Source: Escherichia coli
Lineage (GTDB): Bacteria > Pseudomonadota > Gammaproteobacteria > Enterobacterales > Enterobacteriaceae
Assembly (NCBI RefSeq): GCF_050320075.1
Contig: NZ_CP190018.1
Reading direction: 5' to 3' (one strand)
Length of the DNA: 64,000 nt
Shown here one piece after another: positions 1-61,494 of the stretch. The position numbers and the translations under genes were made by a program. The notes under the pieces were generated by a model. It was given only the letters and a program-made list of their open reading frames with translations. It ran no database searches and was not told where the DNA came from. Every line of letters starts with the position of its first letter. Position 1 is the stretch's first letter.

Positions 1-442
1 CGAAGTGAAAAAAGAAGATATGTCGATGCAGGCGATTCGTCACTGGGGCGAAACACACAGTGAAGCCGAGGTTCGCGAGCTGTTGGAACAGAACCCGTCT
101 TTCGTCTTCTTTAAACCGCAATCTTTTGCACCGGTGAAAGGGGCAAGTGCGGTGCCGCTGGTTGGCCGTGCTTCTGTTGCCTCCGATCGTTCAATTATTC
201 CGCCAGGTACTACCTTGCTGGCAGAAGTGCCGCTGCTGGATAATAACGGCAAATTTAACGGTCAGTACGAATTGCGTCTGATGGTGGCGCTGGATGTCGG
301 TGGCGCAATCAAAGGCCAACACTTCGATATCTATCAAGGGATCGGGCCGGAAGCCGGGCACCGCGCAGGTTGGTACAACCACTATGGACGTGTCTGGGTG
401 CTGAAAACGGCTCCGGGCGCAGGTAACGTCTTTAGCGGCTGA
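1..442 (+). CDS. mltA: membrane-bound lytic murein transglycosylase A, C-terminal part (5' end outside window)
   Basis: Frame open from window start to stop at 440-442; translation recognised as MltA C-terminus; followed by tcdA as in E. coli. Confidence 0.8.
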   Translation, partial: EVKKEDMSMQAIRHWGETHSEAEVRELLEQNPSFVFFKPQSFAPVKGASAVPLVGRASVASDRSIIPPGTTLLAEVPLLDNNGKFNGQYELRLMVALDVGGAIKGQHFDIYQGIGPEAGHRAGWYNHYGRVWVLKTAPGAGNVFSG

Positions 443-1818: not shown

Positions 1819-3023
1819 TAATCCACCAATAATTCCAGCGCGCGGTCAACGGCATTCACCAGCGCATCCACATCACTCTTTGTATTATATGGCGCAAAAG
1901 AGGCGCGCAGTGTGCCGGTTACGCCTAATTCTGCCAGTAGCGGCTGAGCGCAATGCTGCCCGGCCCGCAGGGCAATACCGTACTCCGCCAGCAGCGTCAC
2001 CATATCGCTGTGATGAACGCCAGCAAAATCAAAGGCCAGCAGGCTGGAATCCTGGCAGCGAAATGAGCGGAAGCCAGGACGTTTTGCCAGCGCATCTTCC
2101 GCTAGCGTTGCTAAGCTACGGCTCCAGCTTTCGGCCTGGTTGATATCGTAATCTGCCAGCCATTCCAGCGCCGCGCTTAATCCTATGACACCAGCGACAT
2201 TTGGCGTTCCGGCTTCCAGTTTCCACGGCGCAGATTGAGTCGTGAAGCCGTCAAAACTCACTTCGTGAATCATTTTGCCGCCACCCAGCCAGGGTGACAT
2301 CGCTTCCAGCAGTTCTGATTTGCCATACAGCACGCCGATACCCGTCGGGCCATACAGTTTGTGACCAGAGAAAGCATAGAAATCAATATCCAGTTGCTGA
2401 ACATCCGCAGGGAAATGCACCGCCCCCTGAGCACCATCAACCATCACCACCATCCCGGCTGAATGAGCAAAGGTAATCGCTCGCGCCAGATCCGGGCAAC
2501 CGCCAGTCACGTTCGACATCTGACCCAACGCCAGAATCCGACTACGGGGAGTAATCAGTTCTGGCAACAAATCGACATCCGGCAGTCGCTGCGCATTAAG
2601 CGGCAATTTCACCACTTTGGCTCCCGTTTGTTGGGCGACCATCAGCCAGGGGACGAGGTTGGCGTGGTGTTCTGCCACGCTGACAATAATCTCATCGCCC
2701 GGTTGCAGACGTGGACGCGCATAGCATTGTGCCACCATGTTGATGGATTCAGTGGTGCCGCGCGTCCAGACGATAGTTTTGTCATCTGGTGCATTCAGTA
2801 ATTGCGCCACTTTCTCTCGTGCAGCTTCATAACGCGCGGTCAGGCGTTGGGCTTCGGCAAACTGGCTGCGATGGACGTTTCCGGCGCTCAGGCTGTAAAA
2901 CTGTCGGGTGGCTTCAACCACGGCTTCAGGTTTAAGCGCGGTCGCGGCGCTGTCGAGATAGACGCCCGCATCCTGAAGTGCGGGAAACTGGGCGCGAAAC
3001 TGCGCGGGATTAAAAACGTTCAT
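1818..3023 (-). CDS. csdA: cysteine desulfurase CsdA (PLP-dependent)
   Basis: ORF 1818..3059; start placed at ATG 3021-3023 (MNVFNPAQF...) giving 401 aa; upstream extension likely an alternative-start artefact. Confidence 0.9.
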
Positions 3024-40950: not shown

Positions 40951-41622
40951 ATGCAGTACCCGATTAACGAGATGTTCCAGACCCTGCAAGGTGAGGGTTA
41001 CTTTACCGGCGTCCCCGCCATTTTTATTCGTTTACAGGGATGCCCGGTTGGCTGTGCCTGGTGCGACACCAAACACACCTGGGAAAAGCTTGAGGATCGG
41101 GAAGTCTCCCTTTTCAGCATTCTGGCGAAGACCAAAGAGAGTGATAAGTGGGGGGCGGCGAGCAGTGAAGACTTGCTGGCTGTCATTGGTCGCCAGGGAT
41201 ACACCGCGCGGCATGTGGTGATTACGGGTGGTGAGCCTTGCATTCATGATTTGCTGCCACTTACTGACCTGCTCGAAAAGAACGGTTTTAGCTGCCAGAT
41301 AGAAACCAGCGGTACTCATGAAGTGCGTTGTACGCCGAATACCTGGGTCACCGTGTCGCCAAAGCTAAATATGCGTGGTGGTTATGAAGTATTGTCGCAA
41401 GCCCTGGAGCGAGCTAACGAAATCAAACACCCAGTTGGACGCGTACGTGATATCGAAGCACTGGATGAATTGCTTGCGACGCTGACCGATGATAAACCGC
41501 GAGTCATTGCACTGCAGCCGATTAGCCAAAAGGATGATGCCACACGTTTGTGCATTGAAACCTGCATTGCGCGTAATTGGCGTTTGTCGATGCAAACACA
41601 TAAATATTTAAATATTGCCTGA
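40951..41622 (+). CDS. queE: 7-carboxy-7-deazaguanine synthase (radical SAM)
   Basis: 223-aa ORF with radical-SAM Cys motif (CPVGCAWCDTKHT); recognised as QueE (YgcF). Confidence 0.9.
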   Translation: MQYPINEMFQTLQGEGYFTGVPAIFIRLQGCPVGCAWCDTKHTWEKLEDREVSLFSILAKTKESDKWGAASSEDLLAVIGRQGYTARHVVITGGEPCIHDLLPLTDLLEKNGFSCQIETSGTHEVRCTPNTWVTVSPKLNMRGGYEVLSQALERANEIKHPVGRVRDIEALDELLATLTDDKPRVIALQPISQKDDATRLCIETCIARNWRLSMQTHKYLNIA

Positions 41623-41960
41623 TTACACATTTATAAGCGTTATAAATGGGTGGAACCTGTAAAGACTTCTACTCATTTATATTCTTTGTCGCCTCTAAAA
41701 AACCTCCATTTTGCCCATCCTGGACTAATCATTATCATTTTCTACAAATTCTGTGGCGTTAATTTTTCGTTGGAGTGAAAATTATTACGTCGGAGTTTGG
41801 TGGATTTTAGTCGGTATAGAATTACTTTAAATATTTGGCTTTTCAATCAATGAATTAAGTGCTCTTTAACATAATGGATGTGTTGTTTGTGTGTTTCTGT
41901 TAAGTTGGTAGATTGTGACTGACTTAAAAAATCAATAATTAATAATAGGTTATGTTTAGT
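41623..41960 (+). promoter_or_regulatory. CRISPR leader (AT-rich), inferred promoter side of the array
   Basis: 338-bp AT-rich non-coding region immediately 5' of the first consensus repeat; degenerate repeat lies at the opposite end of the array. Confidence 0.6.
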
Positions 41961-43209
41961 GAGTTCCCCGCGCCAGCGGGGATAAACCGTTTGCTGAGTG
42001 TGCATACACACTTGAACATCAGAGTTCCCCGCGCCAGCGGGGATAAACCGCTATCAGTAACAACCTGGTAAATATCGGTTTTGAGTTCCCCGCGCCAGCG
42101 GGGATAAACCGTTTTCGGGGCCATAAATGGCGCTCATTTATGTGAGTTCCCCGCGCCAGCGGGGATAAACCGGGAAAATAAACGCGTTATTCCTTGATGG
42201 GTGCGAGTTCCCCGCGCCAGCGGGGATAAACCGAGCAACAGGTATTTCATATGGCCTGCCGTGCTGAGTTCCCCGCGCCAGCGGGGATAAACCGGCCAGC
42301 GGCGCTGAGTACGACGACCTGATTAAGAGTTCCCCGCGCCAGCGGGGATAAACCGTCAATACAACAGCAATGCTGGAGCTGGAAAAAGAGTTCCCCGCGC
42401 CAGCGGGGATAAACCGTGGTGGGATAGCTGCTCTGCCAGCGTGTCGCGGAGTTCCCCGCGCCAGCGGGGATAAACCGTGGGCGCAGCTCATGTATTCCAA
42501 TAAGGATATGAGTTCCCCGCGCCAGCGGGGATAAACCGAGATTCGCGCAATGTACGGTAAAGACAGCACCGAGTTCCCCGCGCCAGCGGGGATAAACCGC
42601 CATTCTTGTTGTCGTTCATCAAGCGCAGGGGGAGTTTCCCGCGCCAGCGGGGATAAACCGTTTGTTTTGATGATTTATCAGTATATGAATTGGAGTTCCC
42701 CGCGCCAGCGGGGATAAACCGATTTTTGCGCGGCCTGCATGAAACCAGTGGCAAAGTTCCCCGCGCCAGCGGGGATAAACCGGTACCGTTGAGCAATGGT
42801 GGGTAAATGGTGCTGAGTTCCCCGCGCCAGCGGGGATAAACCGATTTAGATACGGCACACAGGAATGCGCTGGATGAGTTCCCCGCGCCAGCGGGGATAA
42901 ACCGCATGGGAGTCCAGATTACAAATTCCAGAATGGGAGTTCCCCGCGCCAGCGGGGATAAACCGCGCCAGTCTGAGGTTTTCCGGTCATACATCGTGAG
43001 TTCCCCGCGCCAGCGGGGATAAACCGACCGTTGCTACACATATGATCAGGCATGTGCCGAGTTCCCCGCGCCAGCGGGGATAAACCGGACGATGAGACGC
43101 CCTGGTGTGCCGCGTTCGTGAGTTCCCCGCGCCAGCGGGGATAAACCGCGTTTAGCTCCGCAATGTTGGATATCACTGATGAGTTCCCCGCACCAGCGGG
43201 AATAAACCA
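41961..43209 (+). CRISPR. type I-E CRISPR array, 21 repeats and 20 spacers
   Basis: 29-bp repeat GAGTTCCCCGCGCCAGCGGGGATAAACCG recurring with exact 61-bp periodicity (41961 + 61n); all spacers 32 bp and unique; last repeat (43181-43209) degenerate. Confidence 0.98.
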
Positions 43210-43680
43210 CCATATAACCCGTTATCTCTTTCTCAAGTTTTTATATTAGCAGTACTCGTATTAAGCAACATATCCACGTAACACCTCATGTTCAAAATAG
43301 CTCTCCATATATGAGAAGTTCACAATTATCGATACAAAAAATCAAATTTAATCAAAGTGTTATTTGTATAATCCTTAAACCGTTAAGAAATTTTAACATA
43401 TTATTTTTTTAATATTAATTAATGCCTGTTAATTTTTTCTTTAGAATAACAGTGTATTTTTTAAGCTTGTTATTCATTGATTAAGTAATAAATCTGGAAA
43501 TTTGTCTTTGTTTTGAGGCTAATGAGTGGTTTTACATAATCGCCTCTATACGCTGTTGATGAATAGTTCTTATGAATAAAGATATCCAGTTCATACTTTA
43601 AGTGAAAATTGATAAAGTGCGATTCGTATTGTCTTTTATTCTAAAGACATCGAGTGTAGTTAATATTCCTTGTAAAAACA

Positions 43681-43800
43681 GGGATAAACCGAACTAGTTA
43701 AAGTTTTTATTATGTTCCCTGCATCAGCGGGGATAAACCGGACTTGTTATCATTTTTTAAGTTGTCGAACTTATGTTCCCCGCGCCAGCGGGGATAACCA
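43681..43800 (+). CRISPR. remnant mini-array (partial repeat, two degenerate repeats, two spacers)
   Basis: GGGATAAACCG fragment (43681-43691), degenerate repeat ATGTTCCCTGCATCAGCGGGGATAAACCG (43712-43740), 32-bp spacer (43741-43772), degenerate repeat ATGTTCCCCGCGCCAGCGGGGATAACCA (43773-43800). Confidence 0.8.
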
Positions 43801-43846
43801 TTCAGGTATGTTCAGGCCGGGCAGTTTCCCGCCCGGTCTTCCTCAC

Positions 43847-45325
43847 TTACGCATTCGACCAGCTCTGGATCGAATCCGCATTCCCCAATTCCCCATGCAT
43901 CACTTCATACGATTTTTTCAGGATTACATCAGTATGTTTGGTTAACTCCTTGAAAATGCCTTTATTCATCGCGTTGTAGCGTTTGGCGTTGCTCTCAACA
44001 GGCATAAAGATATCTTTCACGCGAACCATTTTGTCGACAGCCGTTGCGTAATCCGGGTATAGCCCCAGACCTACCGCCGTATTAATCGCTGCCCCCAGGC
44101 TTGCACAACCATTAATGGCGTTACGGCGTGCCGGAAGGTTGAACACGTCGGCAAAAATCTGCATAAACAGATCGCTGTTCGAACCGCCGCCAGTAATGAT
44201 CACATGCTTTGCAAAGTGATTCATTTCATTACACATATTGTCGTAATTGTTCTTCAGCGTCAGCGCCACGCTTTCCAGTATCGAACGATATATCCATGCG
44301 TAATCCATGCTGGAATCAAAGCCAATCATAATCCCGCGTTTGTACGGTTCCCACGGATTGGTCAGCCAGTCCAGCACCGTCATCAGACCATTACAGCCTG
44401 GCGGCACACAAGACGCTTTTTTGTTGAGCAAATCTTCCGGTGAAAGATCCTGTGCTTTGGCATCCTGAATTAACGACTCGCCTAACATGTCGCGTAGCCA
44501 GCTCACCGTCCACATGCCTTTGCGAATACCGTAACCTTCATACAGCAAGGTTTGCGGAATAGAAGACATAATCGGCCAGTACGCTACCGGATCTTTCGGT
44601 AGTAATTTGCCGTTCATCATCAACGCGATGTAAGTGCCAAGAGAAATTACCGCAGTTTCATCATCCAGTAACCCGGCTCCCAGTGCTTCTACCGGTTTAT
44701 CACTGGTGGTACAAACAACCGGCAGCCCAGCCGGGAAATGTGTCGCCAGCGCGGCTTGAGGAGTGATATGCCCAAGAACAGTGCCCGGCATTTGCACATC
44801 AAACAGCATATGACGGGGGATATTAAACTTCTCCATGACTGCGGCATCTTCACTCCATGCCCAGGTCTTATAATCCACCGGCCACTGACCAAAATAGTTG
44901 GCGATATTGTCTTTAAACTCGCCGGTTAAGCGATGCGTCAGATAACCCGAAAAAGAGGTGACATATGCCACGTCAGGATTCGTATGTTCGTAAGGGCGTG
45001 TAACGCGTGCATCCTGCCAGCTAATCAACGGCGCAGCTGGCGTGCCATCGGCTTTCAATAACGCACGGCAGCAACGGATGGATCCCAGACCAATACCGAC
45101 AATATCTTCTTTATTTCCGGCAAACTGACTCATCAAATCGTGACCGGCAAAGCATAATGATGCCCATAAATCGTCGTCAGGATGTTCTGCGGTATCGGCA
45201 TCTGGCGTGTGCATCGGCTGCAATAAGCCTTTGCCTTCGCAAACCACATTACCTTCCAGATCGTACATCACCACTTTTGTGCTCTGACTTCCACCATCAA
45301 TCCCTATGATGTATTTTTTCGACAT
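43847..45325 (-). CDS. ygcE: FGGY-family carbohydrate kinase
   Basis: 492-aa ORF with FGGY kinase N- and C-terminal domain signatures. Confidence 0.85.
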   Translation of the reverse strand: MSKKYIIGIDGGSQSTKVVMYDLEGNVVCEGKGLLQPMHTPDADTAEHPDDDLWASLCFAGHDLMSQFAGNKEDIVGIGLGSIRCCRALLKADGTPAAPLISWQDARVTRPYEHTNPDVAYVTSFSGYLTHRLTGEFKDNIANYFGQWPVDYKTWAWSEDAAVMEKFNIPRHMLFDVQMPGTVLGHITPQAALATHFPAGLPVVCTTSDKPVEALGAGLLDDETAVISLGTYIALMMNGKLLPKDPVAYWPIMSSIPQTLLYEGYGIRKGMWTVSWLRDMLGESLIQDAKAQDLSPEDLLNKKASCVPPGCNGLMTVLDWLTNPWEPYKRGIMIGFDSSMDYAWIYRSILESVALTLKNNYDNMCNEMNHFAKHVIITGGGSNSDLFMQIFADVFNLPARRNAINGCASLGAAINTAVGLGLYPDYATAVDKMVRVKDIFMPVESNAKRYNAMNKGIFKELTKHTDVILKKSYEVMHGELGNADSIQSWSNA

Positions 45326-52350: not shown

Positions 52351-53124
<774 letters not shown>

Positions 53125-53228
53125 ATCAGCATACTTGTCCTTAGCCTTCTGCAGTGACAGCTGGTAGTACAGCGTGCTTCTGGCCAGCCCTGCAGCCTTT
53201 AACAGGTCAGACTGGCAGTGTCCGCACC

Positions 53229-53750
53229 TCAGGCTCCGGATGACTTTCGTTTTTTCTCCAGCTCCTGGCGCTTTTTTTCCAGGAGATGCTCCTGCATGGC
53301 TTTCAGATATGCATTTTCTGCGCGAAGATAACGTAGCTCATTCTTCATCTCTTCCGGCGTCATGTTTGCCTCGTTTTCATGGGTATCATCAGAACGGGTC
53401 ATGCTTTTCTCCTTCCTGCGCCTGATAAAGGCCTCATTACCAGATTTGCGGTAGCCTTTTATCCAGTTTTTAACCGTGTTGTGGCTGGGAATGTTAAACC
53501 GGGCAGCTACCCGGGGTAGAGACTCAGAATGCCCGAGAGCATAAAGAACCACGCAAAGTTTATCTTCAGGAGAATAGCTACGCTTGTGTCTGCAATCCAG
53601 TGCCCGAGGACCGTGAAGAAGAAAAAGATTAATCCAGTGTGAGAGGCTGGTGTGAGAAAGTTGAAAGAGTTTTGCCGTAGAAATGATGCCTGCATGACCA
53701 GCCAGGTAATGATTTACAGCGGCAAGTTTTACTTCAAATGAATGTTTCAT
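53229..53750 (-). CDS. IS3-family transposase OrfA (HTH DNA-binding, leucine-zipper region)
   Basis: ORF 53229..53759; likely ATG start at 53748-53750 (MKHSFEVKLAAVNHY) giving 173 aa. Confidence 0.85.
   Translation of the reverse strand: MKHSFEVKLAAVNHYLAGHAGIISTAKLFQLSHTSLSHWINLFLLHGPRALDCRHKRSYSPEDKLCVVLYALGHSESLPRVAARFNIPSHNTVKNWIKGYRKSGNEAFIRRRKEKSMTRSDDTHENEANMTPEEMKNELRYLRAENAYLKAMQEHLLEKKRQELEKKRKSSGA
53271..53278 (-). other. candidate -1 programmed ribosomal frameshift site (A AAA AAG)
   Basis: Minus-strand A7G run about 45 nt upstream of the orfA stop, at the orfA/orfB overlap. Confidence 0.6.
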
Positions 53751-61341: not shown

Positions 61342-61494
61342 ATGCTGACAAAATATGCCCTTGTGGCAATCATCGTACTGTGTTGTACAGTACTGGGATT
61401 CACGCTGATGGTAGGCGACTCGTTGTGTGAGTTGAGTATCAGAGAACGTGGTATGGAGTTTAAGGCAGTTCTCGCTTACGAATCGAAGAAGTAG
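61342..61494 (+). CDS. Hok-family type I toxin (50 aa, HokE/HokX-like)
   Basis: ATG 61342 preceded by GGGAGG; product [50 protein letters not shown] has one TM helix and the conserved Hok C-terminal region; below the ORF-track size cutoff. Confidence 0.8.

Follow-up and report, generated by a model that had tools for sequence, protein, structure and literature searches.

CRISPR locus between queE and ygcE

The DNA analyzed was a 64-kb stretch of E. coli, which is referred to as the window. Compared with the chromosome of E. coli YZLc1-3 (NZ_CP123240.1), a strain from chicken faeces, the window showed 2 mismatches over 42.2 kb. The 2.2-kb stretch around the array was 100% identical between the two and is annotated as CRISPR in YZLc1-3. 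The features identified at the locus were as follows.

40951..41622, + strand: queE (ygcF), the left flanking marker, an ORF of 223 amino acid residues, annotated as queE in NZ_CP123240.1
41623..41960, + strand: AT-rich leader (leader2.3) of 338 nt, recognized by its similarity to the leader of K-12 MG1655 and with the same 338 nt in four further E. coli strains
41930..41942, + strand (-31 to -19 from the first repeat): IHF-like motif AATCAATAATTAA, matching the IHF consensus WATCAANNNNTTR at 12 of 13 positions, read from the sequence
41961..43209, + strand: CRISPR array in which 21 repeats (29 nt each) alternate with 20 spacers (32 nt each), located by fuzzy repeat search and annotated as CRISPR in NZ_CP123240.1
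43181-43209, + strand: degenerate terminal repeat GAGTTCCCCGCACCAGCGGGAATAAACCA with 3 substitutions, located by fuzzy repeat search
43663..43801, + strand: remnant mini-array CRISPR2.2 with three degenerate repeats at 43663, 43712, and 43773, found by repeat search and comparison with K-12
43847..45325, - strand: ygcE, the right flanking marker, from the ORF and the annotation of the near-identical genome
61689..64000, + strand: 5' part of cas3 (type I-E), 770 codons, running past the end of the window, identified with domain profiles

The repeats were located with a repeat finder and by fuzzy search with the 29-nt consensus GAGTTCCCCGCGCCAGCGGGGATAAACCG. All 21 repeats were on the + strand and followed a strict period of 61 bp. 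Eighteen of them matched GAGTTCCCCGCGCCAGCGGGGATAAACCG perfectly, while repeat 12 (at 42632) and repeat 14 (at 42754) each had one substitution. A degenerate trailer repeat, such as the one that closes this array, is usual. The spacers, designated S1 to S20, were all 32 nt in length, and spacer Si extended from position 41990+61(i-1) over the following 31 positions. A 61-bp periodicity maintained over 21 copies cannot be a chance feature. In addition, the repeat was predicted to fold into a 7-bp GC stem with a 4-nt loop (-15.1 kcal/mol, z = -3.6, with none of 200 shuffled sequences as stable), and its palindromic core could form a hairpin of the Cas6e type. The search of positions 41600-43900 against Rfam release 15, which may no longer contain CRISPR repeat families, gave no match at gathering score.

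The first-pass annotation had placed a set of CRISPR spacers here, listed with the leader-proximal spacer first. The 21 repeats at 61-bp spacing bore out the former claim, and the 20 spacer strings that it gave were letter-for-letter identical to the ones extracted in this study. The order was confirmed by the AT-rich leader upstream, the degenerate repeat at the far end and the PAMs located 5' of the matches. That annotation did not name the array; the locus is the long-described CRISPR2/CRISPR2.3 of E. coli.

The order of queE, array, CRISPR2.2 remnant and ygcE is like that of K-12. Of the 339 aligned positions of the leader, 305 (90%) were identical to those in the leader of the queE-ygcE array of K-12 MG1655. 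IHF binds the type I-E leader at about the position at which the IHF-like motif was found. Moreover, the CRISPR2.2 remnant contained one 32-nt spacer, GACTTGTTATCATTTTTTAAGTTGTCGAACTT, which is the same as in K-12. The array is the classical second array of E. coli, CRISPR2 or CRISPR2.3, between queE/ygcF and ygcE.

The cas3 fragment in the window scored 89 bits against cas3_HD (cutoff 43) and 225 bits against cas3_core (cutoff 102), which were above the NCBIfam cutoffs. Against the PRK09694 equivalog, the partial Cas3 encoded in the window scored 423 bits, under the cutoff of 569 bits. The cas operon beyond cas3 lies outside the 64-kb window and was read from the near-identical genome of YZLc1-3. 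There, a complete cas3-casABCDE-cas1-cas2 operon was followed by a second array (CRISPR1) and iap, with no pseudogene flags. The lengths of the Cas proteins of YZLc1-3 were 899, 520, 178, 351, 248, 216, 307, and 97 amino acid residues, respectively, which presumably differ from those of K-12.

Protospacers

The spacers, joined end to end, were compared with three collections (about 38 Gb in total): 50,697 phage records, 72,556 plasmids and 5,426 complete E. coli genomes. IMG/VR was searched with eight spacers, and the flanks of the matches were then read. In the IMG/VR scans, S6, S8, and S9 were used over their whole length, every sixth base being replaced by N, and S10, S11, and S16 with their first 25 nt. 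Firm protospacers, matching at 29-32 of 32 positions, were found for 10 of the 20 spacers: S1-S5, S7, S13, S17, S18, and S19. The matches of seven of these (S1-S4, S7, S13, and S17) were 32/32. The E-values of the full-length matches in the three collections other than IMG/VR were 1e-5 or lower. The results for individual spacers, with the motif directly 5' of the match, were as follows.

S1, 41990..42021, + strand: 32/32, ATG, eaE-like small early gene, plasmid p009_B (NZ_CP048306.1)
S2, 42051..42082, + strand: 32/32, ATG, ArdC gene of pGF47-C (NZ_CP172172.1, 6806..6775)
S3, 42112..42143, + strand: 32/32, ATG, intergenic in pGF47-C (2940..2909), on the same strand as the S2 target
S4, 42173..42204, + strand: 32/32, ATG, gene for a tail protein in a myovirus prophage from E. 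coli GF43 (NZ_CP172127.1, 199150-199181)
S5, 42234..42265, + strand: 30/32 (mismatches at 7 and 17), AAG, early gene of 74 amino acid residues (phiV10p47/HK629_033)
S6, 42295..42326, + strand: no credible protospacer
S7, 42356..42387, + strand: 32/32, ATG, tail-fibre gene of the GF43 prophage (201279-201310)
S8, 42417..42448, + strand: protospacer not found in the phage, plasmid, E. coli and IMG/VR collections
S9, 42478..42509, + strand: protospacer not found in the same four collections
S10, 42539..42570, + strand: protospacer not found in the same four collections
S11, 42600..42631, + strand: protospacer not found in the same four collections; the spacer occurs in other E. coli arrays
S12, 42661..42692, + strand: protospacer not found in the phage, plasmid and E. 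coli collections
S13, 42722..42753, + strand: 32/32, AAG, tape-measure gene of the P2-like contig IMGVR_UViG_3300011584_000016
S14, 42783..42814, + strand: 26/32, AGG, terL gene on a 727-kb Klebsiella plasmid, a tentative match
S15, 42844..42875, + strand: protospacer not found in the phage, plasmid and E. coli collections
S16, 42905..42936, + strand: protospacer not found in the phage, plasmid, E. coli and IMG/VR collections
S17, 42966..42997, + strand: 32/32, AAG, terminase large-subunit gene of the P2-like contigs IMGVR_UViG_3300028969_000137 and _3300012155_000029
S18, 43027..43058, + strand: 29/32 (mismatches at 26, 29, and 32), AAG, tail-fibre gene of the GF43 prophage
S19, 43088..43119, + strand: 30/32, AAG, gene at the endolysin position (between holin and Rz) of Aeromonas phage phiARM81ld
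S20, 43149..43180, + strand: trailer-end anchor spacer, common to many E. coli arrays; protospacer not found

Comparison of the spacers with phages, plasmids and the host genome, together with a check for a PAM of the AAG or ATG type beside the matches, had been proposed in the first-pass annotation. Ten spacers matched phages, prophages or plasmids, and all ten firm protospacers carried such a PAM, five AAG and five ATG. The window, the near-identical chromosome and the portions of its plasmids that were read contained no self-target. At least half of the spacers derive from enterobacterial plasmids and temperate phages.

The target of S1 in p009_B adjoins an ead/Ea22 gene. S1 also matched phage D6, the P22-like Salmonella phage SE16 and an O157:H7 prophage at 31/32, for which the flanks were read and contained ATG, as well as other P22-like phages, Escherichia phages JEP4 and HEMP4 and many plasmids of about 110 kb at 31/32. 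The plasmid pGF47-C, targeted by both S2 and S3, is a 31-kb conjugative plasmid of the VirB type. S2 was also found at 29/32 in a Klebsiella plasmid, in which the PAM was read as ATG, and, with only the match read, in a Salmonella plasmid and a second Klebsiella plasmid. For S5, AAG was read in phiV10, the lambdoid phage HK629 and a 91-kb plasmid, and matches of 29-30/32 also occurred in O157 typing phages and further plasmids of 85-216 kb.

The S4 target was also found in strain D217-5, at 30/32 with ATG. The S18 target is 366 bp from the S7 target, in the same gene and on the same strand of the GF43 prophage, whose tail module was 88% identical to those of induced coliphages such as vB_EcoM-720R5. 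The contigs with the S17 target also contained a copy of the S13 target at 27/32 on the same strand. The named phages nearest to these contigs were peduoviruses, such as Yersinia phage vB_YenM_324 and Cronobacter phage ESSI-2, with about 68% identity.

The match of S19 was also found at 30/32 with AAG in an Aeromonas veronii plasmid, whose flanks were read. By match scores alone, weaker matches of 28-29/32 were found in other Aeromonas phages and a Roseobacter phage. Because all S19 mismatches were synonymous (KDDETPWCAAFV), the true donor of S19 was probably a relative of these elements, an enterobacterial phage that has not been sampled. Similarly, the differences between S14 and terL were synonymous except one, and the peptide TVEQWWVNG was kept. 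If the donor had the synonymous codon CAA in place of CAG, the PAM would be AAG. The 26/32 match weakly suggests that the S14 target is probably a terminase gene.

No credible match was found for S6, S8-S12, S15, S16, and S20 (9 of 20 spacers) in the approximately 38 Gb searched. When the unmatched spacers were searched against phages and plasmids with E-values up to 10, only the weak match of S14 to terL was added, and IMG/VR yielded nothing for S6, S8, S9, S10, S11, and S16. Two candidate matches were rejected. The match of S6 to Pseudomonas phages (26/30, E = 8) was at chance level. The 100% match of S20 to a "plasmid" (NZ_CP134663.1) was to a 4.9-Mb chromosome filed as a plasmid, in which the matching sequence was inside a CRISPR array with repeats on both sides.

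PAMs and the cas variant

In the leader-to-trailer orientation, AWG was directly 5' of the protospacer in all ten firm matches, for which the chance expectation is 1/32 per site. Therefore, the matches are genuine and the spacer orientation is right. ATG was associated with S1-S4 and S7 and AAG with S5, S13, S17, S18, and S19. Besides AAG, type I-E systems permit ATG, AGG, and GAG as PAMs.

Previous results showed that the Cas proteins of K-12 (cas-EK) acquire spacers beside CTT (= AAG) but did not sample CAT (= ATG) at all, and that the cas-EO variant of the O157:H7 type, which goes together with type A repeats in the array beside the cas genes, acquires spacers next to CWT (= AWG) (Diez-Villasenor et al., 2013; PMC3737337). 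Among the natural spacers of strains of the cas-EO type, CAT occurs more often than any other motif (Diez-Villasenor et al., 2013). All 10 repeats of the cas-adjacent CRISPR2.1 array, located by cas2 in NZ_CP123240.1, begin with GTGTT, which is type A. The repeat variant of the queE-ygcE array differs, beginning with GAGTT. With GTGTT at the start of every cas-adjacent repeat in the near-identical genome, the PAM spectrum of this array is exactly the one published for cas-EO. Judged by repeat type and PAM spectrum, the mixture of ATG and AAG fits acquisition by a non-K12 Cas1-Cas2 variant of the cas-EO type.

Distribution of targets and of the array in relatives

Three elements were each targeted by two or three spacers on one strand. 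The targets of S2 and S3 were both on the - strand of pGF47-C. In the GF43 prophage, a 2.5-kb stretch contained the targets of S4, S7, and S18, all of them on the + strand; the oldest of the three spacers, S18, was the one that matched at 29/32. Similar to these, the targets of S13 and S17 were both on the + strand of L027. Altogether there were four strand coincidences, with a p of about 0.06 by chance. The same-strand clustering, with the oldest spacer as the imperfect match in one group, has the geometry that priming would produce, and may reflect primed adaptation in nature.

At least 80% of the spacer set was present in 16 of the 5,426 complete E. coli genomes. The arrays of the four other strains with identical leaders had spacers in common with the array of this study. 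S1 and S2, at the leader end, were common to two of the four strains, and most of S4-S20 to three of them; the remaining strain, 961, had only S17 and S20. Internally, the arrays differed in the presence or absence of S3, S5, S11, and three extra spacers, and S20 was a widespread anchor at the trailer end. This is the usual pattern of addition and turnover at the leader end, followed by internal deletion. In some genomes older spacers were found at two to three places, which were suspected to be prophage targets; in strain 961, the one genome read, they were tandem duplications of S17 inside the array.

Interpretation

The repeat and spacer lengths, the hairpin, the leader and degenerate end repeat, the cas genes in the genome and the PAMs were all found to be those of a type I-E array. 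We hold with high confidence that this is the chromosomal CRISPR2 (CRISPR2.3) array of a type I-E system, whose 20 spacers record past temperate phages, phage-plasmids and a conjugative plasmid. By analogy with known type I-E systems, the array would be transcribed from the leader, and Cas6e would cut the repeats at the base of the hairpin to give crRNAs of 61 nt. Cascade with a crRNA would then find DNA that matches the spacer beside AAG or ATG, in a seed- and PAM-dependent manner, followed by recruitment of Cas3, which would degrade the target DNA. New spacers would be inserted at the leader end by Cas1-Cas2 and IHF. What the sequence shows is the anatomy of the array, its locus, the leader homology, cas3, ten targets with their PAMs and the lack of self-targets in the sequences read, whereas expression, crRNA processing and present-day interference of the system are inferred.

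The array could also be a silent fossil record, that is, a genuine type I-E array whose cas genes are repressed and which provides no present-day defence, its spacers merely documenting former encounters. The cas operon of K-12 is silenced by H-NS under laboratory conditions, and a silent record would agree with the sharing of most spacers (S4-S20) with other E. coli lineages, with arrays that differ mainly by deletions, and with the nine spacers that were unmatched in the sequences searched. However, seven spacers matched sequenced elements at 32/32 with functional PAMs, the cas operon of the near-identical genome was without pseudogene flags and no protospacer-bearing element was found in that genome (chromosome, IncX3 plasmid and the first 50 kb of the 161-kb plasmid). 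To a silent record we give somewhat less than an even chance.

For the type I-E array as a record of past invaders, a further reading concerns how the spacers were gained: the array may be a natural record of primed adaptation by a non-K12 (cas-EO) system, which we propose tentatively and consider rather unlikely. Older spacers (S18 and S17, flanked by AAG, and possibly S3) would have primed the later acquisitions (S7 and S4, S13, and S2, respectively), which are mostly flanked by ATG. Each later spacer would derive from the strand, and the element, that its primer matches, whether the prophage, the P2-like phage or the plasmid. If this reading is true, the system of E. coli, supposedly dormant, would have been at work in nature in this lineage.

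It is very improbable that some spacers target the host genome and thereby cause autoimmunity or regulate genes. The best match outside the array in the 64-kb window, by BLASTN-short and an ungapped scan, was 22/32, which is the level reached by shuffled spacers in the window (mean best 19.8, maximum 22/32). In the chromosome of YZLc1-3, the array itself was the only place with a match of at least 29/32. Moreover, matches did not exceed 22/32 in its 46-kb IncX3 NDM-5 plasmid. Of its 161-kb ColV plasmid (pYZLc1-3_160k), the first 50 kb was read and gave matches of at most 23/32.

The last alternative, that the spacer-target matches reflect chance or gene homology rather than true protospacers, has a negligible probability and is effectively refuted for the ten firm spacers by the seven 32/32 matches, the E-values, the AWG at the right position in every case and the ceiling of 22/32 for shuffled spacers, although S19 (Aeromonas phages) and S14 (Klebsiella terL) do match via conserved coding sequence with synonymous differences, so that the records found for these two are relatives of the donor and not the donor.

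The array, as the chromosomal CRISPR2 of a type I-E system, is normal and already understood immune memory. Its locus, repeat, leader, PAM and typical targets have been described in E. coli for more than a decade. The results matter little beyond annotation, and the spacer list is now half annotated. The table of spacers and targets may help strain typing and work on the host range of phages and plasmids in avian and ExPEC-like E. coli. An expressed system would be expected to exclude pGF47-C-like plasmids and the GF43-type prophage. The clustering of targets on the same strand is a small data point for natural priming and the sole mildly interesting feature.

Comparison with known systems

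Similar to priming in the laboratory by the type I-E system of E. coli K-12, the targets form same-strand groups, and in one group the imperfect spacer (S18) is the older one, with the targets of the younger spacers 366 bp to 2.5 kb away. Different from laboratory priming, in which the motif used with the K-12 Cas proteins is almost only AAG, the young spacers here have ATG, and the evidence is observational, from sequence. The cas-EO system of the O157:H7 type is similar in the type A repeats of the cas-adjacent array and in the mixture of ATG and AAG (CWT) motifs. Compared with CRISPR2 of K-12, the array is at the same locus with the same flanking genes, and has repeats of the same 29-nt family, 32-nt spacers, the 61-bp period, a leader that is 90% identical and the identical spacer in the CRISPR2.2 remnant. 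However, the K-12 array has 6 spacers, none in common with the 20 found here, and its repeats begin with GTGTT, whereas those of this array begin with GAGTT.

Spacer targets

The CRISPR2 array of the E. coli O9:H10 genome (NZ_CP062851.1; L014), at the same locus as in the window, included the spacer CACGGCTGGCCATTTGAAATACCTGTTGCTCT at L014 1501-1531. This spacer was the opposite strand of the protospacer of S5, the main-array spacer at window 42234-42265, with a 2-nt shift, and its target in phiV10 and HK629 had its own AAG PAM. Because CACGGCTGGCCATTTGAAATACCTGTTGCTCT is a shifted opposite strand with a PAM of its own, the small phage gene targeted by S5 was sampled independently on both strands, in separate E. 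coli lineages.

For S17, which targets P2-like viral contigs, the array of strain 961 (NZ_CP103645.1, L021 20001-20154) contained three copies in tandem, and the extra "places" returned for this genome by the similarity search were these tandem duplications. The start of one target contig (IMGVR_UViG_3300012155_000029, L028 1-130) contained an inverted duplication of ~40 nt that holds the S17 protospacer on both strands, at 8-39 (+) and 123-92 (-). This inverted duplication is probably an assembly artefact of the contig end.

The 100% "plasmid" match of S20 was false. NZ_CP134663.1 (L010), entered in PLSDB as "plasmid unnamed1", is a 4.9-Mb E. coli chromosome, and the match was to the CRISPR array of that chromosome itself.

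The near-identical strain YZLc1-3 possesses a 46-kb IncX3-type NDM-5 plasmid (NZ_CP123242.1, L029) and a 161-kb ColV-type virulence plasmid (NZ_CP123241.1, L020). No main-array target was found in the parts of these plasmids that were read, although another small conjugative plasmid of VirB type carries the targets of S2 and S3.

Neighboring features and repeat variants

Features of the main array and its neighborhood (window positions)
42632-42660, repeat 12 of the main array, one substitution (C6T)
42754-42782, repeat 14 of the main array, one substitution (G1A)
43663-43801, CRISPR2.2 remnant, a mini-array of three degenerate repeats and one 32-nt spacer
52402-53750 (-), IS3-family transposase, inserted between ygcQ and ygcP
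61342-61494 (+), Hok/Gef-family toxin gene, between cysH and cas3

The CRISPR2.2 remnant was located 450 bp past the end of the main array, and its sole spacer, GACTTGTTATCATTTTTTAAGTTGTCGAACTT, had the same sequence in K-12 MG1655 and strain 961 as in the window. The transposase, IS1397-like by annotation in strain 961, lay in the interval that separates the CRISPR2 array from the cas operon; the toxin gene was directly upstream of cas3.

The single-substitution repeats 12 and 14 may be of use as lineage markers. The queE-ygcE array of the window (41961-43209) possessed GAGTT repeats and the cas-adjacent array of YZLc1-3 (L012 9452-10029) GTGTT repeats. In K-12 (L030), however, the repeats of the queE-ygcE array were GTGTT, and those of the cas-adjacent array are type T, which equals GAGTT (PMC3737337). 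Compared with K-12, whose cas-adjacent type is taken from that publication, the repeat variants of the queE-ygcE and cas-adjacent arrays were exchanged.
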